From an uncultured Mycoplasma sp. (GTDB lineage Bacteria; Bacillota_I; Bacilli_A; RF39; UBA660): DNA of 64,000 bases. How positions within the stretch are numbered: the first letter of the stretch is position 1; each line of letters opens with the position of its first letter. The notes beneath the pieces were generated by a model, which was not told the origin of the DNA, did no database searches, and saw nothing but the letters and a program-made list of their open reading frames with translations. The stretch spans positions 27,806 to 91,805 of the forward strand of contig CANSFH010000002.1 in assembly GCA_947646115.1 (NCBI GenBank), in the 5' to 3' direction. Both the position numbers and the translations under genes were made by a program. Below, one piece after another: positions 8,151-42,797 of the stretch.

Positions 8151-8684
8151 TTATAATAAATGCGCTAAACCCAAAATAAATAAAATAATTACTCCAATAA
8201 TATTAGCATACATTCCTAGTATTTTATTAGCTTGTTTACCAACTATTATCCCTCCATAAGTAAAAAGAAAACTGCAAACGGAAAAAATACTCATTGCTAA
8301 ATATATATTACTCGTAATAGCCTTTATTCCTAGTCCTACAGAAAAACTATCAATACTTACTCCAAAAGCAAATAAAAGCATACCTAAAAAAGATAAATTA
8401 AACTCTTCTTCTTCATGTTTTATAATATCAATAATCATTTGAATAGCTATAAAAATTAAAATAATTCCTAATAAAATATCGCATTTTAATTCAAAAGTTT
8501 TAATTAACTGTTCACCAAGCATCATTCCTAGCATTGGCTGTAAAAAATGCATTACTCCAACTATTGAAGATAAAATCAAGGCTTTTTTTCGAGATACATT
8601 AAACATGCCAACCCCTAAAGATAAAGAAAAAGTATCCATACTTAAAGCAATTCCTATTAAAATAATACTAAATATTTCTTTCAT
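8151..8684 (-). CDS. MntP/YtaF-family (DUF204) membrane protein
   Basis: Two DUF204-like repeats (LSMDTFSLSLGVG and SIDSFSVGLG) and about 6 TM segments. Confidence 0.6.
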   Translation of the reverse strand: MKEIFSIILIGIALSMDTFSLSLGVGMFNVSRKKALILSSIVGVMHFLQPMLGMMLGEQLIKTFELKCDILLGIILIFIAIQMIIDIIKHEEEEFNLSFLGMLLFAFGVSIDSFSVGLGIKAITSNIYLAMSIFSVCSFLFTYGGIIVGKQANKILGMYANIIGVIILFILGLAHLL

Positions 8685-8685
8685 T

Positions 8686-8722
8686 TAAAAAGCCTCCAAT
8701 ATAGTTTATTTTTGAAGGCTTT
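8686..8722 (-). terminator. Terminator hairpin downstream of spoIIR
   Basis: aaagcctcca...tgaaggcttt stem with flanking T-runs. Confidence 0.5.
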
Positions 8723-8725
8723 TTA

Positions 8726-9229
8726 TTAGAACTTTTTTAAAATATTTTTCACGTAAGACTGATACTTAATATCACTAATATCTTCTTCGTTATTATCTAA
8801 AAGACACAGCGGAGGAAAAAGAACACACCAAAAATTATTTCCCATTCCTTCACCCAAAGTAATTACTAATGATTCATAATCTCCAGCTTTATACATAACT
8901 CCTTTATAATTTTTGGTTGGAAAATAGTTTAAACCGTAATTTATATTATAAGGAACATTATATTCTTTAACCAATTTATCTATTGCATCCATATTAGAAC
9001 TAATTACATCTCTAACATCATTAGTACTATTAGCATCTTTAATCAAATTATATATTTCTTTTTCAATTTTATCTTTAATTAATAACTTATTTTGTTGATC
9101 TTGCACAGTATTACTATTAGCTATAACCCTAAATCTTATTGCATTACTAGGAATAATTATATCTTCCTCTTTTTTATTAAAAATAACTACTAAACTTACT
9201 ATAAATAATATAATAATAACTTTTTTCAA
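8726..9229 (-). CDS. spoIIR: Stage II sporulation protein R
   Basis: Signal peptide, IRFRVIANSN, and the signature GEGMGNNFWCVLFPPLC (the G.G.NWWCV.FPPLC motif of SpoIIR). Confidence 0.7.
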   Translation of the reverse strand: MKKVIIILFIVSLVVIFNKKEEDIIIPSNAIRFRVIANSNTVQDQQNKLLIKDKIEKEIYNLIKDANSTNDVRDVISSNMDAIDKLVKEYNVPYNINYGLNYFPTKNYKGVMYKAGDYESLVITLGEGMGNNFWCVLFPPLCLLDNNEEDISDIKYQSYVKNILKKF

Positions 9230-9454
9230 TGTATATCACCTAAAATAATATAGAGTTTAAAACAATTTTTTTATTCAAGAATTTTAATTAAACTAATATT
9301 TATTATAAAAACATTGACAATAACTAAGCTTTTAAGATATAGTATATTTGGTAAATTATTAAATTAATAGCACCAAAAAAAATATAAATCATAAAAAATA
9401 GTATAAGTGCCTAACTTATACTAAAATTTTTCTTAGGAGTAAGGGTGTGTTAAA

Positions 9455-10708
9455 ATGAAACAAATGATAATTGAAGGAAATAATATTCTTTCTGGAGATA
9501 TTCATATTGGCGGAGCTAAAAATAGTGCGGTAGCACTTATACCAGCTTCTATTATGGCTTATGGGGCCTCAACGATTAAAAATGTTCCAAATATTTCTGA
9601 TCGTGATGCCTTAATTGATATTTTAAAATTATTAAATTGTGATATAAAATTAACTAAAGATGAACTAATTATAGATACAACAGATTTAAAAAATGTAAAC
9701 ATTGATTGTAGCTATTCTAGCAAACTTAGAGCATCTTATTATTTTATGGGAGCTCTTTTAGGCCGTGATAAATATGTTGAAATATGTTTGCCTGGCGGCT
9801 GTAACATTGGTACAAGACCTATAGATATTCATATTGATGGTTTTAAGGCATTAGGAGCCAAAGTAACAATAAAAGATAATAAATATATTTTAGAAGCAGA
9901 CAAATTAATTGGTACTGATATTAATCTTCGCTTTAAAAGTGTTGGAGCAACTATTAATATAATGCTTGCAAGTGTTCTAGCAGAAGGAGTAACTACCATT
10001 CACAATGCCGCAGAAGAAATAGAAATAATTAATATTGCAGAATTTTTAAATGCTATGGGAGCTAAAATAACAGGAGCGGGAACAGCAACTATTACGATAA
10101 CAGGAGTGGAATCTTTATATGGCGCTGAAATTTCGGTATTACCAGACCGTATAGAAGCAGGAACGTATATTATTCTTGGAGCTCTTTGTGGTCAAGAGTT
10201 GTGTATAAAAGATATTAATCCTCATCATTTAGAATCTTTAATTAACACTTTAAAAAACATAGGTGTTGATATCAAAGTTAATTCTAATAATATTCTAATA
10301 AATAAAACAGAAAATCTCCGACCAGTTAATATAAAAACTGAAGTATATCCTGGTTTTCCGACCGATATAGGCCAACCTATGAGCGTATTATTAACTCAAA
10401 TATCAGGATCTTCAGAATTTGAAGAAACTATATGGGAAAATAGAATGGGGCATATTCCATCTTTAACGAAAATGGGCGCAAATATCAAAGTAAATAAAAA
10501 TAAAGCAACCATTATTGGTCCTACCGCATTAAAAGGAGCAGAAGTTCTAGCTACAGATTTAAGAGGGGGAGCATCCCTAGTTTTAGCAGGATTAATTGCG
10601 GATGGAACAACCATTATAACTGATGTTGAACATATTTTAAGAGGATACGAAAATATTGTTTTAAAGCTTAAAAATGTAGGTGCTAAAATAGAAATAAGAG
10701 AAATATAG
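9455..10708 (+). CDS. murA: UDP-N-acetylglucosamine 1-carboxyvinyltransferase
   Basis: 417 aa with the typical MurA N-terminus (GGAKNSAVALIPA) and a CNIG active-site cysteine region. Lying next to rpmE resembles B. subtilis murAB. Confidence 0.95.
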   Translation: MKQMIIEGNNILSGDIHIGGAKNSAVALIPASIMAYGASTIKNVPNISDRDALIDILKLLNCDIKLTKDELIIDTTDLKNVNIDCSYSSKLRASYYFMGALLGRDKYVEICLPGGCNIGTRPIDIHIDGFKALGAKVTIKDNKYILEADKLIGTDINLRFKSVGATINIMLASVLAEGVTTIHNAAEEIEIINIAEFLNAMGAKITGAGTATITITGVESLYGAEISVLPDRIEAGTYIILGALCGQELCIKDINPHHLESLINTLKNIGVDIKVNSNNILINKTENLRPVNIKTEVYPGFPTDIGQPMSVLLTQISGSSEFEETIWENRMGHIPSLTKMGANIKVNKNKATIIGPTALKGAEVLATDLRGGASLVLAGLIADGTTIITDVEHILRGYENIVLKLKNVGAKIEIREI

Positions 10709-11763: not shown

Positions 11764-12414
11764 CTAAAAATAAATTTTATAAAAAAGAAAAGCTAATATT
11801 CCAATTATTATAAAAATACATATTTTAACAAAATGTTCTTTAAAATTATAATACCACAAAACTATTCTCGTCAAAAATTTAATAGACCAATTTAAATCAT
11901 TAATTTTTATTTTTATAATATCTAGTTCATCTACTTTTTCCCCAGTGAAATCACACTTCACACGATTTATAATTCTAGAAATTAAAATAAACATACAACT
12001 TGTATTTAGCTTTTTCTTTAGCTTAAACTTATCAGTTTTATTTTTTCCTTGTGATTTATAAGTATATTGCATATAATCTTTAATAGCCTTAACAGTTTTA
12101 GATGAACAATACATATAATTATCTTCTAGAACTCGCGTTAAAGCATTAATATCACTTATTGATATATCATCATTTATTTCATAAGCTTTTTTATAAGAAT
12201 TAACTATATTAAAACCATTCATAAATAAATCTACCCAAAAACGTAAAATTTTCTCCTGTAAATCAACACCCTTATCTTTAAAATATTGAGTTGTTAAACT
12301 CTTTTTAGTATTTTTAGAAGTAAATTTAGCAGTAATATAAGCAACAATTATTGTAACTATAAACCCCATTATTTTCATTCCATTTTCTGATAAAATAAAA
12401 TCTTTATAACTCAT
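11764..12414 (-). CDS. Hypothetical membrane protein
   Basis: 216 aa with N- and C-terminal hydrophobic helices. No motif recognised. Confidence 0.4.
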   Translation of the reverse strand: MSYKDFILSENGMKIMGFIVTIIVAYITAKFTSKNTKKSLTTQYFKDKGVDLQEKILRFWVDLFMNGFNIVNSYKKAYEINDDISISDINALTRVLEDNYMYCSSKTVKAIKDYMQYTYKSQGKNKTDKFKLKKKLNTSCMFILISRIINRVKCDFTGEKVDELDIIKIKINDLNWSIKFLTRIVLWYYNFKEHFVKICIFIIIGILAFLFYKIYF

Positions 12415-12527
12415 AATAAAATCACCAAACCTATTATAACTTACTATTTAAAATATATATAGTAAATTATTAATTTTTTCTTTAAAAATAACTAATAATT
12501 TGGTATTATAAAGCAGTGGTGAAACAT

Positions 12528-13130
12528 ATGGAAGAACTATTTCGTATCAATGGTAAGACAATTTATAATATAAACACTACCATTTTATATACTAGTGATT
12601 TTAATTTTAATGCTGATGCTATTATATATTTAAATAACGGCTGTCTTTTATTTGAAAAAAATGGTCGCTATAATATAAATGACATTTCTGATGAACTATT
12701 AGACATATTTGAATGTTTACCATTAAAAAATAAACAAAATTTAACTAAAATAGATGAAATTAAAATAAATATTCTTGGAAACTTATTAAGTCCCAAAAAA
12801 GTCTTTGTTTTCTTAAATATTTTCACATATTTAGATAATAAATTTAAAAATAAATTAATTAGTTTTCTTGCTAGGGCCAATAAAATAGTTATAAACTATA
12901 CCACTGATATTGAAGAAGTTTTATTATTTCCCTATTTAATAATCAGTCAAAAAAAACAAATAATTATTGAAGGAAATACAGAGGAAGTTTTAAAAGAAGA
13001 AAGAATAATTAAAAAATTAGGTTTTAATCTTCCATTTATTGTGGAATTATCAAGTGGATTAAAATACTATGGATTAGTTGATAAAGTTTATTTTAATAAT
13101 GAAAGCTTGGTGGAAGATTTATGGAAGTAG
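12528..13130 (+). CDS. Degenerate EcfA-like ABC ATPase (predicted inactive)
   Basis: ABC-ATPase-like layout, but Walker A is absent (ADAIIYLNNGCLLF), the signature is LSPKK instead of LSGGQ, and Walker B is YLD instead of DE. It occupies the ecfA1 position upstream of truA. Confidence 0.45.
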   Translation: MEELFRINGKTIYNINTTILYTSDFNFNADAIIYLNNGCLLFEKNGRYNINDISDELLDIFECLPLKNKQNLTKIDEIKINILGNLLSPKKVFVFLNIFTYLDNKFKNKLISFLARANKIVINYTTDIEEVLLFPYLIISQKKQIIIEGNTEEVLKEERIIKKLGFNLPFIVELSSGLKYYGLVDKVYFNNESLVEDLWK

Positions 13131-33005: not shown

Positions 33006-34865
33006 TTATATTTTAAGTTTAGTTTTTACAATTCTTTCTAAATGTTTTTGCAAAGCTTCATCACAAGCATATACATAACAACCCTTAATTCCTCTTGTAA
33101 GCAACACTCTATATGTATTTCTAATAATTTTATCAGCAAGCTTTTCATAATAAGACTTGTCTTTTTTCATTAAAACATATAATCCATACAATGACTTTTC
33201 TGTACTAGCTCGAGCTTTATAATCAGTTATTACTTTACCATTTCGATACTTTAAATCTGGTCCTATTATAACACCGATATAATCAAATTCTAACCCTTGA
33301 ACATTATGAACACATCCAACTTCATTTATAGCACTTATTCTTGTTGCAAACTGCTCCCCGTGTTTCAAATTCCAACTCATTTCAAAGTCATCAATTTTAA
33401 TATCTTTATATTGTTGATTATCAGCTTCTTTGGCATTTCTTGACCAACAAAAACCCGCTACTAACCTAGCATTATTAATAGTGTTTTTCTCTATTATTTC
33501 ATCTCTTAAATCTGTAGGAGTATCCATAACTTTAAAATCAAAATTAAAATTAACACTTCCTCTTTTATTATAAAGAATCTTATCTACGAAATCTAAATAA
33601 GAATCACTTCCATTACATCTAAATTGACTAGTAAGTTCTAGTTCCATAACATCAGCATTAAAGTATTTAGCAAAGTATTTGATATTTAAAATAGTTCCAA
33701 TATCTTTTAAAGTAATAATCTGTTTTTCATCAATAAAGAAAACCGATAATTTACTAGCATTCATAATTTCTTTAATCTGATTTTCGCCTATATTATTCCG
33801 CATGCCAGATTTTTCTGATAATCTATGAGATTCATCAACTAATAAAAAATCATATTTATTTGGATAATCCCTAAAGAAGTAACCCGAACTTTTAAATAAT
33901 TCATTTATACTGACTTCGTTCTTTCCATTTATTAATTTATTTTTATAAACTTTTCTGGGCGCCATATTTTTAGAAACATAAGCCCCCATTAAGCCTCTAG
34001 AAAGTAATTCGCCTAAAGCATTAATAGCTAAAATAGATTTACCACTCCCTGGCCCACCTTTAATTATCAAAACATTCTTTTTATTTTCAATATATGAAGC
34101 ATTTGCCTTGGATATAATTTCTTCCATAATTACTTTTTGTTCATCAAGCATAACAAACTCTTTACTTCCTTCTAGTATTCTATTAAGATGTTTAAGTAAT
34201 TTATTAGTCGGTTTAATATCGCTTTGATCAACTAGTTTTATAACTTCTAAATTATCACCATGTCTAATATTAGAATTAATTAAATCTTTTAAATAATCTT
34301 TATCATTCTTGCCAAACATTAAAACCTTTTTATAATAGGGACTATATTTTTTACTATATAAATCATCACTTAAGCTTAAATCATAATTGTGTAAATAAAC
34401 CAGAGGTACAACTTTTATCTTATAATCTTGAATGTTAATATTATAATTATTTAAAAGTTCAGCATAGCTTCCTACCTGATAAGCTGGGTGTAGCGAGTTT
34501 TTTTCTTTATCACCAATTAATGTTTTAATAACGCCATCTAAATTTTTTACTTCTTTAGCATATTCCCACTGTTTTAATTCGACTAATATAATCGTAGGTC
34601 TCATTTCCTCATTATAACCACTAATAATAAAATCTACTCTTTTACTTGTAAGTGGTATTCCATATTCAATTGTAATGCCAGCATTATCTGGTAATTCTTC
34701 TATAATGTCTTTCATAAAAGGTAAACTATTAGCCCAAGCTTTAATTTGATTTAGTTTGGTCTTTTTATTAAATTTTTCTTTATATGCGTCATATACTTTA
34801 TTACTTATAATATCTCTTTTGACATAATCTATAAACTCTTTTTTTAAACACGAAAAAACCATCAC
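33006..34865 (-). CDS. PD-(D/E)xK nuclease fused to a DUF2075-type SF1 helicase/ATPase (Schlafen-like or Nhi-like), a candidate defence protein
   Basis: N-terminal RVDFIISGY...ILVELKQW is a D...ELK restriction-endonuclease fold. Walker A GGPGSGKS. A long helicase-like C-terminal region follows. Confidence 0.65.
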   Translation of the reverse strand: MMVFSCLKKEFIDYVKRDIISNKVYDAYKEKFNKKTKLNQIKAWANSLPFMKDIIEELPDNAGITIEYGIPLTSKRVDFIISGYNEEMRPTIILVELKQWEYAKEVKNLDGVIKTLIGDKEKNSLHPAYQVGSYAELLNNYNINIQDYKIKVVPLVYLHNYDLSLSDDLYSKKYSPYYKKVLMFGKNDKDYLKDLINSNIRHGDNLEVIKLVDQSDIKPTNKLLKHLNRILEGSKEFVMLDEQKVIMEEIISKANASYIENKKNVLIIKGGPGSGKSILAINALGELLSRGLMGAYVSKNMAPRKVYKNKLINGKNEVSINELFKSSGYFFRDYPNKYDFLLVDESHRLSEKSGMRNNIGENQIKEIMNASKLSVFFIDEKQIITLKDIGTILNIKYFAKYFNADVMELELTSQFRCNGSDSYLDFVDKILYNKRGSVNFNFDFKVMDTPTDLRDEIIEKNTINNARLVAGFCWSRNAKEADNQQYKDIKIDDFEMSWNLKHGEQFATRISAINEVGCVHNVQGLEFDYIGVIIGPDLKYRNGKVITDYKARASTEKSLYGLYVLMKKDKSYYEKLADKIIRNTYRVLLTRGIKGCYVYACDEALQKHLERIVKTKLKI

Positions 34866-34941: not shown

Positions 34942-36393
34942 TTACTTAAAGCTGATATCAAAATTACTAGGTCCTTCAATACATTTACCATCTATATCAA
35001 ATCTTGAACCGTGGCATAAACAATCCCAAGTTTTTTCAATTTCATTGAACAATATGCCACACTTCATATGTGGACATTTATTATATACAATATGTTCTAA
35101 CCCATTTTCATCAGTATATATAGCAACACTCTTACCATGAATTTTTTTGTAGATAACTCTACAGTTATTAACATTATCTTTTGTGCTTTTTAGAATAGCT
35201 TTAACACTTGCTCCTATATCAATTGGCATTCTAATAACTTTACTTAAATTAATATTTCTATTTGGAGATAATAATTCTTCATAAGGATTATGTCTTTTCA
35301 TGATTATATCAGTAATAATCGTACCAGCTAAAGTTCCGTTAGTAATGCCCCAAGTATTAAAGCCTGTTGCCATAAGCATAGTATTTTCATCTTTATGGAT
35401 CCTTCCAATATAAGGCAAGTAATCATTAGTTATAATATCTTTATTACTCCAAATATACTCAAATTCCTTCTTTTTCTTTAAATCTAAAAAATTATTTTTA
35501 ATACTTTTAATATTAGCAGACACATAAGAATTAAATAAGTATATTAAATAATTGTTAGTTTTATTAGAATGATACCTAAAAGATATACAAGGCTTATCAA
35601 TGTTAATAGCACTAACTGAATAAAAATCTTTTTCCTCTTTTGCTCAAATATAAGAAGTTTCAATATGACTCTTTAGAGGCATCAAATAAGGAAACAAAAA
35701 GTAAGGATAATGGGTAGCAAAGACTACATATTTTGCTTTTATTTTATAGCCATTAACTAAAGCAATATAATTATCACTGGTTTTATCTATACTTTCTAAT
35801 TTAGAATTCTCATAAATGCTATCTTTAAATTTATTCTTTAAAAAATTAATATATTTAAGAGGATGAAACACATAAGTATCACTTACCTTTAAAGCCAGCT
35901 TTACATCGTTCATAAAAGGAATATTTTTCACTAGTTGGGAATTTACTTTACATTGGTTTAAAAATTTATATTCTTCCTCTATCTTATCACGACTATTATC
36001 ATCATTTGTAAATATATATGAATCTACTTTCTTTAAATCACAATCAATTTTTTCTTTTTCTATTCTATTTTTAAGAGTATTTACTGCTTCAACTTGACTT
36101 TTCAAATATAATTCTGCTTCTTTAAATCCTACGTATTTTCTAATATTCATATAAACTTTTTCCTGCAAAAAAGTAATTTTGGCAGTACTTCTGCACGTTA
36201 CACCATGTCCACATATATTTCTCTCAACTAAAGTAGCATTTATTCCGCTGTTTTTTAATTGATAAAGTGTTGATATCCCTGTTATACCTCCGCCAATAAT
36301 TAAAACATCAGTTTCCATATCTACAGTAACCGATTTACAGTTTTTAACATCTATATTATCTAACCAAATACTATAATTTTTCATACACATCAT
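34942..36393 (-). pseudogene. Disrupted FAD-dependent oxidoreductase with C-terminal Rieske [2Fe-2S] domain (YhfW-like), split into two ORFs
   Basis: ORF 35644..36393 holds the FAD-binding N-terminus (VLIIGGGITG). ORF 34942..35523 holds the rest of the DAO domain and the Rieske motifs CPHMKCG...CLCHGS. The two are separated by 120 nt containing stop codons. Confidence 0.5.
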
Positions 36394-36490
36394 TATTAAT
36401 ATGAGTAAAATAAATGTATTAATACATATAACTCTTGATTTTTTAGTAATTTTTTGATATCCTAATATTGCTTATTTATAAGCATTTTTG

Positions 36491-36567
36491 TGGCGGAATT
36501 GGTGAAGGGGTTAACACGGCAGATTGTGGCTCTGTTATGCATGGGTTCGAATCCCATATTTCGCCCC
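36491..36567 (+). tRNA. tRNA-His (anticodon GTG)
   Basis: G-1:C73 pair, acceptor GCGGAAT/ATTTCGC, anticodon loop TTGTGGC, T-arm GGGTTCGAATCCC, CCA encoded. It is near-identical in layout to B. subtilis tRNA-His. Confidence 0.85.
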
Positions 36568-36668
36568 ATATTGAATTTTACGCACAACTTTGTGCGAAAG
36601 TTAAAGTAAAAGTTCGTAATACTTGATATTATGGACTTTTTTCTTTGCAAAGGTGGTGAGTATATAAA

Positions 36669-36962
36669 ATGAATGTGTCCATAGAATTTTTAGAATTTCC
36701 TTTGTGTATAAAAAATAAAATACTTAGAATTAAAAATATTACCAAACTAAATATAGAATATATTGCAGGAAAGAATATTGTTTTTAATAACTCTAATTTA
36801 GGATTAAATGAACCACATAATATTATCATTAGTAATAATACTCACAGTCTAGTTTTACTTTGTTATGATAATGATTCAAATCTATATAATGAAGACTTAT
36901 TAGATACTATTACAATAACTGAATTAACCAATATAATTGAATATTTATTAAAAGAAAATTAA
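36669..36962 (+). CDS. Hypothetical small protein
   Basis: 97-aa ORF just downstream of tRNA-His. No motif recognised. Confidence 0.3.
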   Translation: MNVSIEFLEFPLCIKNKILRIKNITKLNIEYIAGKNIVFNNSNLGLNEPHNIIISNNTHSLVLLCYDNDSNLYNEDLLDTITITELTNIIEYLLKEN

Positions 36963-37290
36963 AAAATTTTTAAATTTGCTTTTTCCTTTATTTATAAGGG
37001 TTAAACAACTATTTTTTGGTGTACTTTTTAAGTTGTGTCAAAAGATGATATAGATAGTTATATAAAATCGTTAAGTGAATTTTATAAGATAAAACAAAAC
37101 AATTTAAATATAGATTCTATTAATTTAGAAGAACTAGGTCAAAAGAATAGTCTATTATAAATAATCCCTAACAAAAAAGAATCAAGAATCAAGATTTGAT
37201 AAAGAAAAATATACTTTATTGCAAATATGTAGTTAAGATTACTCGAAAATATGATAAAATATTATTTAGAAGATGTGTTGGGAGGTTTTT

Positions 37291-38079
37291 ATGAAGAACA
37301 TTAATCAACTTGAATTGAAGAAAAAGAAATATATAATTTTTGATATGGATGGTACATTAATTGATTCTATAGGTGTATGGAATAGAACAGATCAAAAACT
37401 AATAGAAGAATATGGGAATCAAACTATAGGATTAGATGAAATTCAAATTGAAAGAGATGAATTTCTTCATAGTAATCAAGATAGCGATATTTATTTAGCT
37501 TATTGTGAATATCTAATCTCAAAGTACAGTTTAAGTATTAGAAATGCCGAAGAATTATTAAGAATTAGATGGGATAAATCTGGAGAAGTATTAGAAAAAG
37601 AAATGGATTTCAAAGAAGATGTTGTACAATTAGTATTAAGATTAAAAAAACTTGGATTTATTCTTATTTTAGCAACTATGACAACTCAAGTTCAATTGGA
37701 TATTTATTCAAAAAGAAATAAGAAAATGCTAGAGCAAATGAATATTGCAGAAGTTTTTGATTTGATTACTAGAAAAGAAGATGTTATAAATAAGAAGCCT
37801 AATCCCGAAATATATATTAAAATTATGCAACATTATAATGCTAGTCCAGATGAATGTTTAGTGTTTGAAGATTCTTATACAGGAGTTTTAGCAAGTCAAA
37901 ATGCAGGAATAGAATGTATAAATATTTATGATAAATATGCTGATATAGATAGAGATAAAATAGATGGAATTACAGATTATAGTATTAAAAGTTATAGAGA
38001 GTTTTTAGGTTTAGTTGATACAATATATCCGATTGAACCAGAAAAAGAAATAAAAAGAGCTTTAAACCGAAATTGTTAA
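37291..38079 (+). CDS. HAD-superfamily hydrolase (beta-phosphoglucomutase-like subfamily)
   Basis: Motif I IIFDMDGTLIDS. GGGAGG RBS 6 nt upstream of ATG 37291. Confidence 0.75.
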   Translation: MKNINQLELKKKKYIIFDMDGTLIDSIGVWNRTDQKLIEEYGNQTIGLDEIQIERDEFLHSNQDSDIYLAYCEYLISKYSLSIRNAEELLRIRWDKSGEVLEKEMDFKEDVVQLVLRLKKLGFILILATMTTQVQLDIYSKRNKKMLEQMNIAEVFDLITRKEDVINKKPNPEIYIKIMQHYNASPDECLVFEDSYTGVLASQNAGIECINIYDKYADIDRDKIDGITDYSIKSYREFLGLVDTIYPIEPEKEIKRALNRNC

Positions 38080-38086
38080 TATAGGA

Positions 38087-38108
38087 GCGAGAAATTGCTC
38101 TTTTTTTG
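38087..38108 (+). terminator. Terminator
   Basis: gagcga-gaaa-ttgctc followed by TTTTTTT. Confidence 0.5.
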
Positions 38109-38306
38109 TTGTTTAAATTTAGAAAGGAGATGAGTTTTATTAATTATTTCTTTGAAATAGTCGTACCACAATTATTAGAATATTTAAAAAAATGCAAAGG
38201 ATGTTCCTTATTCTTTGTTATTTGAAGATTAATTAATAATAAGAACTATGAAAAAGAAGTAAAAGAAATTATTGAAAAATCTAATGGAATTAGTCAATAT
38301 TTCAAC

Positions 38307-39008
38307 TTGATAGATAATAAAATTATAGACCTAATTTCAAGTCAGTTTAATCATAATATAGATTATAAGGCCTATCAAATTATAGATAGACAAAAAATAT
38401 TAACTGATGACACAAAGAATACATATAACATATTAAAAGCAAGATTAATAAAAGAATTATTAAAACAGGTTGATGAAAAAGTATATTCTTGTAAATCTTG
38501 TAATAAATTAGTAGATAAATTCCCTAATGATGCAACAGTATTTCTTGGAAAAGATAATGATATCGTATTAGTTGGAGAAGCTCCTGCTAATAATGGTTTG
38601 AGAAAGAGTCATAAATTATGGTGTGATATAAATGATAAAGTATTACCTAGTGGAGTTGTATTACAAAAACTATTTGATATAATTGATAGAAATATCTTTG
38701 AAACAACATTTTTAGAATCAGTTAAATGTTATCCACTTGAAAGAAAAGATTTAAAAACTTGTTCTAATAATTGTAAGAACATAATGTTAGAACAATTAAG
38801 AATATTAAATCCTAAATTGATTATTACTTTAGGAGAATTTCCAACTAGAAATTTACTTGATTTTAAATTTAAAACATTTTCTGATGTCGTTGGTAACATA
38901 TATGAAGTAAATGGTTATAAAATATTACCTATTTATCATCCTAGCCCAATATCTCCGAAGAGTTATAAAGGTAATATTCCAATCATTAAAAAAATGAGAG
39001 AAATGTAG
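38307..39008 (+). CDS. Uracil-DNA glycosylase superfamily protein (family 4-like, Fe-S type)
   Basis: Motif A VLVGEAPANNG (GEAPG-like), motif B IYHPSPISP (HPSP), and four Cys (CKSC...C...C). TTG start. Confidence 0.5.
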   Translation: MIDNKIIDLISSQFNHNIDYKAYQIIDRQKILTDDTKNTYNILKARLIKELLKQVDEKVYSCKSCNKLVDKFPNDATVFLGKDNDIVLVGEAPANNGLRKSHKLWCDINDKVLPSGVVLQKLFDIIDRNIFETTFLESVKCYPLERKDLKTCSNNCKNIMLEQLRILNPKLIITLGEFPTRNLLDFKFKTFSDVVGNIYEVNGYKILPIYHPSPISPKSYKGNIPIIKKMREM

Positions 39009-39108
39009 CAATTTGTAGAATTATTTGATATAATGAATTTAGATTTAAAGGGCTAGTACAGACTTTGAATAAGTTTTGTATTGGTCTTTTTTAGATATGG
39101 GAGATAAA

Positions 39109-39627
39109 ATGAAAAAGATTATATTCTTAAGTGGTGTTCATGGCGTTGGTAAAGGATATATTGCCAAACAAATAGAAAAAGAAGTTAATATGCCAATATA
39201 TGAAGCAAGTAAGTTAATTCGATTAAATGGAGTATCAAGTGATAAAAATAAAAGAGTAGAGAATGTAGGAAACAACCAAGAGTTATTAATAAATTCGATA
39301 AATAATCTAATTAGTGATGAAATCTTTATTTTAGATGGTCATACCTGTTTGATAACTGCTGATAGAAACATTGAATCAATTGATATTAATTACTTTAGGG
39401 AAATTAACATTATAGGCATTATCTCTATTTATGATGATATTAATATTATAAAAGAAAGGATTTATAAAAGAGATAACATTAATTTTAGTAAATCATTATT
39501 AGATGATTTACAGCGAACTGAAATAGAAAATACCAAACGATTATCAAAACAATTATGTACCCCCCTATTGGTATTTAAAAATGGAGATAATATAAATAGG
39601 CTAATTGATTTTGTTAAAAGTTTGTAG
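39109..39627 (+). CDS. P-loop NTPase or kinase (AAA_33, adenylate/polynucleotide-kinase-like)
   Basis: Walker A FLSGVHGVGKGYIAKQI at the N-terminus. Small size (about 170 aa). Confidence 0.5.
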   Translation: MKKIIFLSGVHGVGKGYIAKQIEKEVNMPIYEASKLIRLNGVSSDKNKRVENVGNNQELLINSINNLISDEIFILDGHTCLITADRNIESIDINYFREINIIGIISIYDDINIIKERIYKRDNINFSKSLLDDLQRTEIENTKRLSKQLCTPLLVFKNGDNINRLIDFVKSL

Positions 39628-39637
39628 GAGGCTTTAA

Positions 39638-41128
39638 ATGATAAAAATATTATTAGACACTAATATAATCGTATATAGGGAAAGTGATAATGTTTATAAA
39701 GAAAAAATTGGAGAATTATTTAAAATAATAGATAATAATCCTAATATGTATAAGTACATACATCCAGTAATTAAACAAGAATTATTACAAAATGTTTACA
39801 ATGAAAAAAGAGATTTATTACTTGATAGGCTGACATCCTATAATGTTTTAGAAAATTGCAGAATGATTGATTCTAAATTAAAAGCAATAACAAATCCTTT
39901 AAATAAAACGGTCAATGACCAAATAGATGATATCATTTTAAATGAACTATATGTTGGTAAAGTAGATTTTTTAATCACTGAAGATAAAAAAATAAAGCAA
40001 AAATCAATCACTTTAGACATCGGCAATAAAGTAATGAATATTAATGAATTCATTTTTATAAATAGAAATGAGAAAAATATAAACCATAATATTTTAGATA
40101 TTTATAAAGTTAAGTTTGGAGATTTAGATATAAATGATTCTTTTTTTGATTCGCTAAAAAATGATTATCCTGGATTTTTAGATTGGTATGAAAGAAAGAA
40201 CAATGAAGATGTATATTGCTATAAAGAACAAGGTAAGATATTAGGATTATTATTTCTTAAAAATGAGGAACCTGAATCAGAAGATTACTCTGACATTAAG
40301 CCTATGATGAAACTAAATAGAAAATTAAAAATTTCCACTTTTAAAGTAGATATTGGTGGCAAAAAAATTGGAGAAAGATTTATGAAAATAGTATTTGATC
40401 AAGCACTATTTTCTATGGTAGATGAAATATATGTTACTATTTATGATAATGATGATAAAAAGATGAATCTGATAAGATATTTTGAAAAATTTGGATTTAA
40501 TTATTATGGAAAAAAGAATAATGAATTAGTATATGTTAGGAGCATGAAAAAGAATTTTGATGATAATAATCCTTTGAAAAATTATCCATACATAAAAAGA
40601 AATAATGATACATTTGTTATTCCAATCAAGCCTAAGTATCATACATATTTATTGCCTGATTCAATACTATATAGAGAATCATATAAGGATATTCATATGC
40701 CAGTTGAATATGCTATAAATAAATATTATATTACAAATAGTGGTTGGTTAGAGATTCCAAAAATTGGAGATAACATTGTTTTTTATCGTAGTCGACAAGA
40801 AGGTGCTATTGCTAAATATTCAAGTGTATTAACCACTATTGGTGTTGTTACTAATATTTTTATTCCAAAAAATGAACAAGAATTAGTTAATAAAGTTTCA
40901 GGAAGAACAGTATATAATGAAAGTGAATTAAGAAAAACATATAGTAAAAACACTTATGTAATTGAATTTGCATATATAACTACTTTAGATAAAAAATTAA
41001 ATTATGATTTTTGTAAAACAAATGGCATATTAGAAGAAGCCCCACGAGGAGTTTCTAAAATTGATAGTACAAAATTTCAAAAAATAATTGAGTTTGGTAA
41101 AATTGACACAACTTTAATTATTAAATAA
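39638..41128 (+). CDS. Three-domain protein: N-terminal PIN-like nuclease, central GNAT acetyltransferase, C-terminal ASCH/PUA-like domain
   Basis: MIKILLDTNIIVY...VDFLITEDKK supplies the PIN acidic residues. GNAT core ...IGERFMKIVFDQAL...IRYFEKFGFNYYGKK. The C-terminus FVIPIKPKYHTYLLP...GDNIVFYRS parallels the adjacent ASCH protein (ISIKPEYVNEIL...). Confidence 0.5.
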   Translation: MIKILLDTNIIVYRESDNVYKEKIGELFKIIDNNPNMYKYIHPVIKQELLQNVYNEKRDLLLDRLTSYNVLENCRMIDSKLKAITNPLNKTVNDQIDDIILNELYVGKVDFLITEDKKIKQKSITLDIGNKVMNINEFIFINRNEKNINHNILDIYKVKFGDLDINDSFFDSLKNDYPGFLDWYERKNNEDVYCYKEQGKILGLLFLKNEEPESEDYSDIKPMMKLNRKLKISTFKVDIGGKKIGERFMKIVFDQALFSMVDEIYVTIYDNDDKKMNLIRYFEKFGFNYYGKKNNELVYVRSMKKNFDDNNPLKNYPYIKRNNDTFVIPIKPKYHTYLLPDSILYRESYKDIHMPVEYAINKYYITNSGWLEIPKIGDNIVFYRSRQEGAIAKYSSVLTTIGVVTNIFIPKNEQELVNKVSGRTVYNESELRKTYSKNTYVIEFAYITTLDKKLNYDFCKTNGILEEAPRGVSKIDSTKFQKIIEFGKIDTTLIIK

Positions 41129-41182
41129 GATTTGAACTTAAAATTATGATATAATTAGAATAATAATAGGAGGAAATATTTT

Positions 41183-41557
41183 ATGTGTAAAATTTTGATT
41201 TCAATAAAGCCTGAATATGTAAATGAAATTTTATCTGGTAGAAAAAAATATGAATATAGAAAAGTCAAAGCAAAAAAAGATAATGTAGACAAAATGATCA
41301 TATATGCCACAGCTCCTATTATGAAAGTAGTAGCAGAAATAGAAATTTTAAAAATTCTAGAAGATACTCCAGATTTAATATGGGAAAATACAAAAGAGTA
41401 TTCAGGTATTAATAAATCTTTCTATGATAAATATTATGAAAATCGAAATATTGCGATTGCATATCAATTAGGAAAAATTGAAAAATATAATAAACCAAAG
41501 GAGTTAAGCGATTTGGGTATTTCATATAGTCCTCAATCATTCATTTATATTGATTAA
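41183..41557 (+). CDS. ASCH-domain (PUA-like) protein
   Basis: ILISIKPEYVNEILSGRKKYEYRK is a typical ASCH N-terminus. 124 aa. Confidence 0.6.
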   Translation: MCKILISIKPEYVNEILSGRKKYEYRKVKAKKDNVDKMIIYATAPIMKVVAEIEILKILEDTPDLIWENTKEYSGINKSFYDKYYENRNIAIAYQLGKIEKYNKPKELSDLGISYSPQSFIYID

Positions 41558-41719
41558 AGTTTAAAAATTTGATATAATTAATTTATCAAGTATTAATTAA
41601 ATACTTTTACGACTTGGGTGCAAAACTCATTTTGGTATTGCCCCATTATGATAATTACTCTCTATTTTAGGGAGTTTTTATTTGTTTTATTTTATGTTAT
41701 AATTATTAAGGTGGTTAAA

Positions 41720-42175
41720 TGACAATACGTGAATTTATTTAATCCTTAAATTTTGAAGAAAATTATTATTTTTATCATATAACAGGAAAAGGCAATGCAG
41801 AATTAATTTTAGAACAAGGACTATATGTAGAAGGGGACAATATTTTAAATACAAATAATATTCTTGAAACTACAACATTTCTAACGCCAGATATAGCTTC
41901 AGAAAGTTTAATATTTAGAAGTTTTTTAGAGGGGAGAACTAGGTAATATAGGAATTAGAGATACTTCTGAACTTGTTGTATTATGCGGTCCTAAAAGTTG
42001 TATGAAGCGAATAGTTTCAGATTTTGATGGTTATCAAGATGGAGTGTACTATGAAGGAATAATTCCTCGTGAATTTGTTATGGGTTATTTTGCGAATGAT
42101 ACATTAGAATTTACTGCAAATGAAAACTTTAGTTATGGAACAGATGCATTCTATGAATCAGTTACATATCGGTAA
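41720..42175 (+). pseudogene. Decayed gene with premature stop and frameshifts
   Basis: ATG at 41720 hits a stop after 7 codons. Two further reading-frame segments (YHITGKGNAELILEQGLYVEGDN... and GIRDTSELVVLCGPKSCMKRIVSDFDGYQDGVYYEG...) are coding-like but not contiguous. No ORF of 60 aa or more is present. Confidence 0.4.
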
Positions 42176-42248
42176 AAATAAAAATGAATAATTAATAAAA
42201 AATAAAATATAGATTATAAATATTTAATATAGAAAAGGAAGTATAAGT

Positions 42249-42797
42249 ATGAAAAAAGTATCTAATAGTATAGTAGGATTATTAAAAATAATTTTAAGTC
42301 TAATAAACTTAGTTTTAGCAATTGTAATTATTTTAAATATTTTATTATTAATGTCTTCTAGAGTTTTAAAGAACGCATATCCATCAATCCTCGATTATAC
42401 GTATTATGTTGTAGAAGAAAAAAATTCTTCTCTAAATTTAGATAAAGGAAATCTTTTAATAATTGATACAAGAACTACTGCTGACTCTGAAGATATTATT
42501 GTTTATCAAAATAATGATAAGCTAGACTATGCTATAGTAACTGAAAGTGATAATTATAGTGCGACTATTAATGAAAACGGCGAAGATATTAAAATTGATA
42601 ATGAATCTATATTAGGAATTGTTAAAATAAATATTCCTGAAGCAGGTACTATTGCAAATCAAATTTTAACAATTAAAGGATTAATCATTTCTGTCATGGC
42701 TATAACTATTACTGGTATAATTCAGGGATTACTAACTAAAAAGTCTAAAAAAGATAATCAAGTAAAACCAGATTTTGAAAATATGAAAAATATATAA
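42249..42797 (+). CDS. Membrane protein, possibly a type I signal-peptidase (S26/SipW)-like protein
   Basis: N-terminal TM, a central soluble domain and a C-terminal TM. This topology resembles SipW-type peptidases, but I could not place the catalytic Ser/His with confidence. Confidence 0.3.
   Translation: MKKVSNSIVGLLKIILSLINLVLAIVIILNILLLMSSRVLKNAYPSILDYTYYVVEEKNSSLNLDKGNLLIIDTRTTADSEDIIVYQNNDKLDYAIVTESDNYSATINENGEDIKIDNESILGIVKINIPEAGTIANQILTIKGLIISVMAITITGIIQGLLTKKSKKDNQVKPDFENMKNI

Follow-up and report, generated by a model that had tools for sequence, protein, structure and literature searches.

A predicted PIN-GNAT-EVE/ASCH cassette of the phage-defence candidate type PDC-M11 in the cargo slot of a decayed integrative element beside tRNA-His

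Operons built around a (PIN)-GNAT-EVE protein have been described computationally by Bell, Wolf and Koonin, who found an ASCH protein encoded in almost all of them and often an AAA_17 protein as well (Bell, Wolf and Koonin 2020, PMC7641849). The PIN-containing form is tied to restriction-modification (RM) systems of type I and is often embedded in their operons, and the PIN-less form occurs in prophages (PMC7641849). The same paper credits the first description, together with the idea that the target is a DNA base to be acetylated, to Iyer et al. 2013. PDC-M11, a two-family cassette (CAS_00069) seen 293 times, belongs to a set of 145 phage defence candidates drawn from genes that lie within BREX, DISARM and type I RM systems (Payne et al. 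2024 preprint). Here we analyse a stretch of 64,000 nucleotides from an uncultured Mycoplasma sp. (GenBank assembly GCA_947646115.1, contig CANSFH010000002.1, positions 27,806 to 91,805 of the forward strand), which we call the window, and in it four genes downstream of a tRNA-His gene that an initial annotation had read as a single module. Sequence comparisons place at positions 39093-41562 what is in all probability a three-gene cargo cassette (kinase, PIN-GNAT-EVE protein, ASCH protein), belonging to the previously described (PIN)-GNAT-EVE/ASCH(/AAA_17) system and hence to the phage-defence candidate PDC-M11. The explanation that we favour for the locus as a whole, at a probability of about 60%, is that this cassette is a toxin-antitoxin (TA)-like module of the abortive-infection type, the UDG gene in front of it being a separate, truncated gene of the element that carries the cassette. 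The 496-aa protein is referred to below as M11A or A, the 124-aa ASCH protein as M11B or B, and the compared loci as L001 and so on. The four co-directional open reading frames (ORFs) of the initial annotation were confirmed, and with the domains of A they are as follows.

38307-39008, + strand: UDG ORF, 233 aa
39076-39627, + strand: kinase ORF in its longest form, 183 aa
39109-39627, + strand: nucleoside monophosphate (NMP)-kinase-like P-loop protein (Pfam AAA_17 7e-12), the facultative third gene
39638-41128, + strand: ORF of A, 496 aa
39638-40072, + strand: PIN domain (VapC-like) of A
40073-40567, + strand: GNAT acetyltransferase domain of A
40568-41128, + strand: PUA-like (EVE/ASCH) C-terminal domain of A, a predicted base or nucleic-acid reader
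41183-41557, + strand: ORF of B, 124 aa

The assignment to PDC-M11 follows from profile matches over almost the whole of both proteins. Residues 3-495 of A align with positions 2-500 of the 501 in the PADLOC PDC-M11A model (PDLC04422, E=2.5e-145), and B matches PDC-M11B (PDLC04425) over its full length (E=1e-44). The architecture, which the initial annotation had taken to be undescribed, is thus already on record in Bell, Wolf and Koonin (2020), in PADLOC as PDC-M11 and in GenBank entry PV340567.1. The last of these, a lambdoid E. coli phage, gives PIN-less homologs the names 'GevT toxin' and 'GevA antitoxin'. GevT, of 357 aa, shares 38% identity with A over residues 151-495 of the latter (E=9e-56); GevA, of 125 aa, shares 42% identity with B over the full length of B (E=1e-37); and both match the same PADLOC PDC-M11 models. 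The phage genes stand in the same order as in the window and overlap, but unlike the window pair they are phage-borne and come without a PIN domain or a kinase gene. Set beside the (PIN)-GNAT-EVE systems, the locus agrees in its three-domain protein, its adjoining ASCH gene, its facultative AAA_17 gene and its broad, patchy spread, and nothing essential differs. Related loci are likewise linked to type I RM, and the PIN-less form likewise occurs in prophages. In the window, by contrast, RM genes are absent from all 64 kb, and the cassette occupies the cargo slot of a serine-recombinase element, now decayed, beside tRNA-His. A link to type I RM or to other defence systems, which the window does not show, is a frequent and not a defining feature of the family. 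PDC-M11 itself is defined as two genes, and the NMP-kinase-like gene accompanies the pair in the window and in about 20% of loci.

The domain composition of A emerged only piecewise. Pfam gave no match for the whole protein; with the domains searched separately, the whole PIN_3 profile was matched at E=0.015 and Acetyltransf_1 at E=0.083. The isolated C-terminal domain of the window protein had no Pfam match, and the same domain in a Pontibacter homolog exceeds the Pfam EVE threshold (23.8 vs 23 bits). A profile of A found nothing significant among PDB sequences. Conservation across 96 homologs marks out likely working residues in each domain: the acidic residues D7, E48 and D97 of the PIN domain are invariant and D94 and D116 at least 90% conserved; K231, K236, E246, R247, K250, E263, Y265, T267, K293 and E296 are invariant polar residues of the GNAT domain; and Y334-H335-T336, P340-D341-S342 and F382-Y383-R384 are conserved in the third domain. 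The PIN domain belongs with the VapC RNases, and the structures closest to the GNAT domain are N-terminal acetyltransferases, not TA toxins. The protein described initially as PIN-GNAT-ASCH therefore stands as a fusion of PIN, GNAT and PUA-like domains with conserved, catalytic-looking residues, with the amendment that EVE is the better and more exact label for its C-terminal domain. Type II toxins of the VapC PIN and GNAT (AtaT/TacT) kinds resemble A in the VapC-like PIN fold with its four acidic residues, in the GNAT fold, in having a small partner gene downstream and in their mobile setting. A differs in fusing both toxin-type domains and adding an EVE domain; type II antitoxins are VapB, ribbon-helix-helix or helix-turn-helix (HTH) proteins, whereas the partner in the window is an ASCH protein, encoded downstream rather than upstream.

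That partner, B, was correctly recognised as an ASCH protein paired with A: it matches Pfam ASCH (2.9e-5) and, in the PDB, ZmASCH (1e-5), and its gene is adjacent to and co-directional with that of A, starting 54 nt past the A stop codon. The accompanying claim that the N-terminus of B mirrors the C-terminus of A fared less well, as BLASTP detected no sequence similarity between B and the C-terminal domain of A (E=12), and the two are related at the level of the fold only. In 76 homologs, the GxKxxExR motif (G19, K21, E24, R26), Y41 and P117-Q118-S119 are all at least 90% conserved. ZmASCH of Zymomonas mobilis (PDB 5GUQ/5GUS), which belongs to the same family as B (PADLOC PDC-M11B 3e-29), is an RNase that depends on Mg and acts specifically on single-stranded RNA; it binds single-stranded DNA without cutting it. 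Its cleft has counterparts in B, with Y41 at the place of Y47 and Q118-S119 at that of Q127-S128, whilst the position of K53 is taken by M47, with K48 adjoining. Unlike B, ZmASCH is encoded by a solo gene; its upstream neighbour, of 375 aa, was considered as a possible GNAT-EVE partner in Z. mobilis and rejected as unrelated to A (BLASTP E=2.3; hhalign probability 0.2%; no PADLOC match). B also matches the C-terminal 'unknown domain' of NCBIfam PRK12279, an L22 ribosomal-protein fusion (E=1.6e-11), a similarity that would link this ASCH branch to the ribosome.

The ASCH fold suggests one way in which A and B might be coupled, namely as a reversal pair of the DarT/DarG kind, with the GNAT domain N-acetylating a base (for example cytosine at N4) and B acting as an amidohydrolase that removes the mark. 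The precedent is E. coli YqfB, an ASCH protein that hydrolyses N4-acetylcytidine by means of K21, T24, E74 and R26, and B retains K21 and R26 of the common GxKxxExR motif. However, the residue of B equivalent to the nucleophile T24 is a Glu (E24, at least 90% conserved), so a role for B as a deacetylase of the YqfB type is unlikely, and we set that assignment aside. B moreover groups with ZmASCH (PDC-M11B 3e-29) and not with the YqfB branch, and ZmASCH, encoded by a solo gene, has no GNAT partner. Such a reversal pair is accordingly a quite doubtful proposition. B is better viewed as a predicted antitoxin or regulator similar to GevA.

The second ORF encodes a small Walker-A kinase, as the initial annotation had it, on the strength of the AAA_17 match. 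Its likely start is the ATG at 39109 (172 aa), in agreement with the gene call in L001, the longest ORF running from 39076. A profile of the protein matches adenylate kinase 1 in the PDB at 6.6e-8, and also UMP/CMP kinases. The Walker A motif GxxGxGK, an L-D-G-H motif (D-G-H), an R-D and an E are invariant in 17 homologs. A structure model from the single sequence had a pLDDT of 34.9 and was set aside.

The family to which A belongs is large, with more than 2000 clusters at 90% identity, nearly all of about 500 aa. Its members occur in no fewer than 561 species-representative genomes, which span many bacterial phyla and include a few archaea. The closest relatives of the window protein come from gut metagenome-assembled genomes labelled uncultured Bacilli, Tenericutes or Mollicutes. 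We surveyed 82 A loci with their flanks. A B homolog adjoins A in 79 of them (78 found by phmmer and one cut by a contig end), usually overlapping the A stop by about 23 nt and lying upstream of A in three loci; a kinase homolog lies directly upstream of A in 18 of the 82, in very different phyla. Recurring neighbours are HsdM (9 loci), HsdS (7), HsdR (6), a YhcG/DUF1016 nuclease (6), Fic (5) and HNH (4), whilst most loci, the window included, have no RM genes nearby, and HAD and NUDIX genes are not conserved neighbours of the pair. The family is also found on plasmids, on rhizobial plasmids with HTH-domain neighbours, and the PIN-less pair is flanked by cI and kil in lambdoid E. coli phages (tblastn against phage records). 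The homologs thus do have conserved neighbourhoods, and these are of the defence and mobile kind. Reading the locus as a defence or toxin system is in keeping with this behaviour (B in 79 of 82 loci, type I RM, prophages, plasmids); what does not survive is the suggestion that the arrangement is new.

Two further observations concern the family at large. A full-length PIN-GNAT-EVE homolog (27% identity, 98% coverage) is encoded at 8230-9678 of Methanothermobacter phage psiM100, in the 'inserted fragment IFa' of this archaeal virus. In 19 loci an unannotated protein of about 350 aa is encoded directly upstream of A, with gaps of -20 to +28 nt, and in 4 more it is about 800 bp away; examples are L082 (8946-10004), L026 (9009-10004) and L073 (9006-10004), and it is missing from the window. 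It has no Pfam or PADLOC match, is unrelated to the kinase and carries the conserved segments ERFHICTWEF, NSRFIFNDS and KGISKSTIIYDIKINE. This protein may be an alternative third component of PDC-M11, one that goes unmentioned in the literature found.

The RM neighbours bear directly on what Iyer et al. proposed in 2013 (in the summary given by PMC7641849), a system with a logic like that of RM: the GNAT-EVE protein would acetylate a base in the DNA of the cell or of the invader, the ASCH protein would read the mark and the PIN domain would serve as a back-up nuclease. EVE domains are known to read modified DNA bases, ASCH partners occur fused to an XRE-type HTH or to HsdS, and PIN-GNAT-EVE genes often lie within type I RM operons (PMC7641849), with which the HsdM, HsdS and HsdR counts in our survey and the HTH neighbours on rhizobial plasmids agree. 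Such a scheme sits less easily with a PIN domain of the VapC RNase type, with the closest characterised ASCH protein, which degrades single-stranded RNA and binds but does not cut single-stranded DNA, and with the many loci, the window among them, where RM genes are not nearby; our literature search linked no acetylated DNA base to the family. On balance we consider DNA-base acetylation unlikely.

The borders of the cassette, and the standing of the UDG gene, become clear when the region is compared with related elements, of which the following features remain in the window.

36493-36568, + strand: tRNA-His (GTG) (ARAGORN; Rfam tRNA 58.8 bits), context outside the system that marks where on the chromosome the element sits
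37038-37190, + strand: C-terminal remnant of a large serine recombinase (tblastn with the L087 recombinase: 51 aa, 63% identity, residues 516-566)
38130-38273, + strand: remnant of a 63-aa backbone gene (tblastn 69% identity to residues 1-49 of 63; in-frame stop at 38223)
38307-39008, + strand: 5'-truncated YunG-UDG gene (UDG superfamily, family-4-like; Pfam UDG 2.9e-12)
39009-39092, + strand: left slot border (blastn homology to L087 through 39092; extended -10-like box TTTGATATAAT)
41563-41709, + strand: right slot border (blastn homology to both L087 and L088 starts again at 41563; extended -10-like box, two-hairpin element, terminator)

Homology between the window and L087 ends at 39092 and resumes at 41563, and kinase, A and B therefore fill the slot exactly. 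Elsewhere the slot holds a 630-aa protein (L087-L090) or RhuM (L091; PADLOC PDC-S05, 3.7e-148), with the kinase-A-B trio in L001 and the window, and the trio is missing from most related genomes that have the same element. A block of 3.36 kb (38284-41646) is 97.8% identical to the metagenomic contig L001, the flanks otherwise differing, and the left end of this block falls within the UDG gene. At the right border, an element of about 75 nt with two hairpins is near-identical in six loci (fold z = -4.94; no Rfam match); its counterparts lie at 8466-8605 in L001 and 8891-9042 in L087, and also in L003 and L006, with a terminator hairpin that differs from locus to locus (41657-41675 in the window). 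Conceivably it encodes a small RNA, serves as a leader or marks a border of recombination. A near-identical direct repeat of 19 bp, ATTTGATATAATNAATTTA, occurs at 39023-39041 and 41566-41584 and so brackets the trio, although the two copies may be merely promoter-like boxes in AT-rich DNA.

These features are hard to reconcile with a housekeeping function for A, for instance as an acetyltransferase that modifies tRNA or rRNA with the help of its PUA-like RNA-binding domain and of B as an accessory RNA-binding protein. Domains of the PUA/ASCH superfamily are indeed often fused to RNA-modifying enzymes (PMC7641849), and ribosomal protein L22 occurs fused to a B-like domain. A housekeeping gene set would not, however, be expected to occur as 97.8% identical copies in unrelated flanks, to fill the cargo slot of an integrative element and be missing from most related genomes with that element, to have lost part of itself in L005 or to include a VapC-type PIN domain, and we regard this explanation as very improbable.

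Outside the window, the YunG-UDG gene usually stands in the order tRNA-His, 578-aa serine recombinase, a few variable genes, 63-aa gene, 184-aa gene, YunG-UDG, variable slot, conserved junction. The full recombinase gene, which in L087 encodes 578 aa with Resolvase and Recombinase domains, adjoins tRNA-His in L087-L090; in L004, L005, L006, L087 and L088 the cassette or element is likewise immediately preceded by a homolog of tRNA-His. The recombinase remnant in the window is a sign of the decay of the element. The UDG gene has itself been cut short: it lacks the first 57-62 or so codons of its relatives, its YunG match spans only positions 66-115 of the 116 in the Pfam profile (the C-terminal half of the domain), and it has only a TTG start, with no ATG and no evident ribosome-binding site, whereas L001 and more than 1000 relatives have a full-length YunG-UDG fusion of about 298 aa. 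The deletion junction lies at a 9-bp microhomology, and the 184-aa gene is gone together with the 5' end of YunG-UDG. The truncated gene has a dN/dS of 0.14-0.18, a value that does not tell how long ago the deletion took place, since it happened recently (window and L001 being 97.8% identical). As to the encoded protein, the GEAP and HPSP motifs noted initially are present, within a motif A that reads GEAPA where family 4 has GE(A/G)PG, but the number of cysteines is six, including a CxxC, and not four. The protein clears the Pfam threshold of the UDG superfamily only and falls far short of the NCBIfam cut-offs for family 4 (TIGR00758, 45.6 bits vs 125.3; Arch_udg, 51.5 vs 250).

A UDG homolog accompanies A in just 3 of the 82 loci, all close relatives, and is absent from the other 79. 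UDG was accordingly rejected as a component of the system, as it belongs to the backbone of the recombinase element and has a variable slot downstream of it; from the comparison it is most simply a truncated backbone gene of a decayed tRNA-His-side element that once had a serine recombinase, and the four genes do not form one module. In L006, UDG copies flank kinase-A-B on both sides (8634-9374 and 12322-12852), the second being internally deleted. L006 keeps the upstream YunG sequence and does not share the truncation seen in the window; both of its copies have an apparent 1-nt frameshift in the YunG part. The duplication suggests tandem or recombined elements.

With UDG outside the unit, the second possibility raised by the initial annotation, repair or detoxification, loses its main support. 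Here UDG would excise an unusual base, the kinase, HAD and NUDIX enzymes would process nucleotides, and the PIN-GNAT-EVE and ASCH proteins would recognise the lesion. The immediate surroundings do lend themselves to such a picture, since the cassette in the window is flanked by the UDG-superfamily gene, a HAD phosphatase gene and two NUDIX genes and the kinase is NMP-kinase-like. The picture does not extend to the family: UDG occurs with the pair in 3 of 82 loci, close relatives only, and is a truncated mobile-element backbone gene whose downstream slot has unrelated cargo elsewhere; the HAD and NUDIX neighbours are not conserved; the pair is patchy and found on prophages, on plasmids and in RM operons; and no regular association with base-excision or nucleotide-salvage genes appeared in the 82-locus survey. 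We give a repair or detoxification role very little credence.

Considering the parts of the cassette together, we picture the TA-like module as follows. The whole would act as an abortive-infection or addiction module, with A as its effector. Its EVE/PUA-like pocket would dock on a nucleotide, possibly a modified one, in a nucleic acid, RNA (tRNA or rRNA, for instance) being the likeliest; the GNAT domain would then move an acetyl group from acetyl-CoA onto the docked target, and the VapC-like PIN domain would cut RNA. B, with its ZmASCH-like nucleic-acid-binding cleft, would restrain A in uninfected cells, either by binding A or by competing for its ligand. The kinase would be a non-essential accessory, acting on a nucleotide or modulating the A-B pair. 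RNA is favoured as the target on three counts, namely a PIN domain resembling VapC, the likeness of B to ZmASCH and the fusion of a B-like domain to ribosomal protein L22, whilst the published HTH-ASCH and HsdS-ASCH fusions keep DNA in play.

The closely related locus L005, which lies beside a transposase fragment, has kept A and lost B and the kinase, and its A gene has diverged in a manner that bears on this scheme. It has 10 changes at columns conserved at 90% or more (the median is 2), many of them radical and including R14M, E15K, G25E, G245R, H335Y, D341N and E347K, and its dN/dS against the window copy is 0.37, compared with 0.09-0.12 for A genes that still have B. Such decay hints that an active A is not kept without B, as would be expected of an effector that B restrains.

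Several points weigh against the TA-like scheme. The decay of A in L005 is equally expected of any half-deleted operon, and L081 has an apparently intact A and kinase with no B within reach. The beta4-alpha3 loop of A reads G-G-K-K-I-G-E-R, with G245-E246-R247 invariant, and departs from the canonical Q/RxxGxG/A; with an acetyl-CoA loop of this non-canonical kind (K-x-x-G-E-R), acetyltransferase activity of A is not assured. HTH-ASCH and HsdS-ASCH fusions point to DNA, not RNA, as the ASCH ligand (PMC7641849). None of these modules had been characterised, according to Bell et al. (PMC7641849); our literature search found no experiments on the A/B family, PDC-M11 being one of the 145 untested candidates, and no experimental papers on GNAT-EVE proteins after 2020. 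The toxin and antitoxin labels amount to one GenBank annotation, and a literature search on GevT, GevA and PhiR47_2 gave an unrelated mention only. Finally, no RM or other established defence system directly adjoins the cassette in the window, where the neighbours are small hydrolases.

A more elaborate scheme would make the cassette an immune system that works through acetylation of nucleic-acid bases, in which the GNAT domain writes on DNA or tRNA, the EVE domain in cis and the ASCH protein in trans read or guard the mark, the PIN domain executes and the kinase couples the nucleotide pool to the response. To our knowledge, base acetylation of this kind has been established for no defence system so far, and we think this scheme rather unlikely. 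The TA-like module described above remains the account that we prefer.

The remainder of the window is ordinary chromosome, with genes for MetRS, MnmG and ABC and MMPL transporters, and base composition is even across the region at about 24-25% G+C. The tRNA-His gene sits 1.7 kb upstream of the first of the four + strand ORFs, and in an Rfam scan of 36000-42500 this tRNA alone was matched. Terminator-like hairpins on the + strand occur in the region only at 38083-38102 and 41657-41675, that is, before the UDG gene and after B, and the truncated UDG gene and the cassette may thus still form one transcript. A promoter scan gave 67 hits where 53 were expected from shuffled AT-rich DNA, which is not over background. 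PADLOC searches with the other large proteins of the window returned only weak or non-specific matches. On the opposite side of tRNA-His, 33006-34865 (- strand) encodes a 619-aa helicase of the DUF2075/Schlafen-group-3 kind (Pfam 3.6e-89) with moderate PADLOC matches (PDC-S41 1.6e-17, Nhi 2.6e-14), which may be a second defence-type gene at the locus. Between it and the tRNA, 34942-36393 (- strand) holds neighbouring ORFs of 249 aa (the N-terminal part of an FAD-dependent oxidoreductase) and 193 aa (a Rieske domain), which look like a single gene broken by a frameshift or stop.

In conclusion, the initial view of this locus is partly supported: the cassette is a known kind of system whose mechanism we infer, and a defence or toxin function fits, whilst the claims of novelty and of a four-gene unit fail. 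As a single instance it adds little, since its architecture is on record from computational work of 2013 and 2020, is searchable with PADLOC and has homologs labelled as a TA pair in GenBank. The family is nevertheless worth work, being very widespread and fusing two toxin-type enzymes to a modified-base reader, and our literature search turned up no biochemical description of its acetylation or cleavage targets. Because the kinase travels with A and B as one cargo unit with sharp slot borders, 39093-41562 is a natural test construct. For the biology of the family, the decaying effector in L005, the one close relative to have lost the ASCH gene, fits a need for the ASCH protein if the effector is to be tolerated, and the placing of the ASCH partner in the ZmASCH branch, and not that of YqfB, argues against a simple deacetylase antitoxin.

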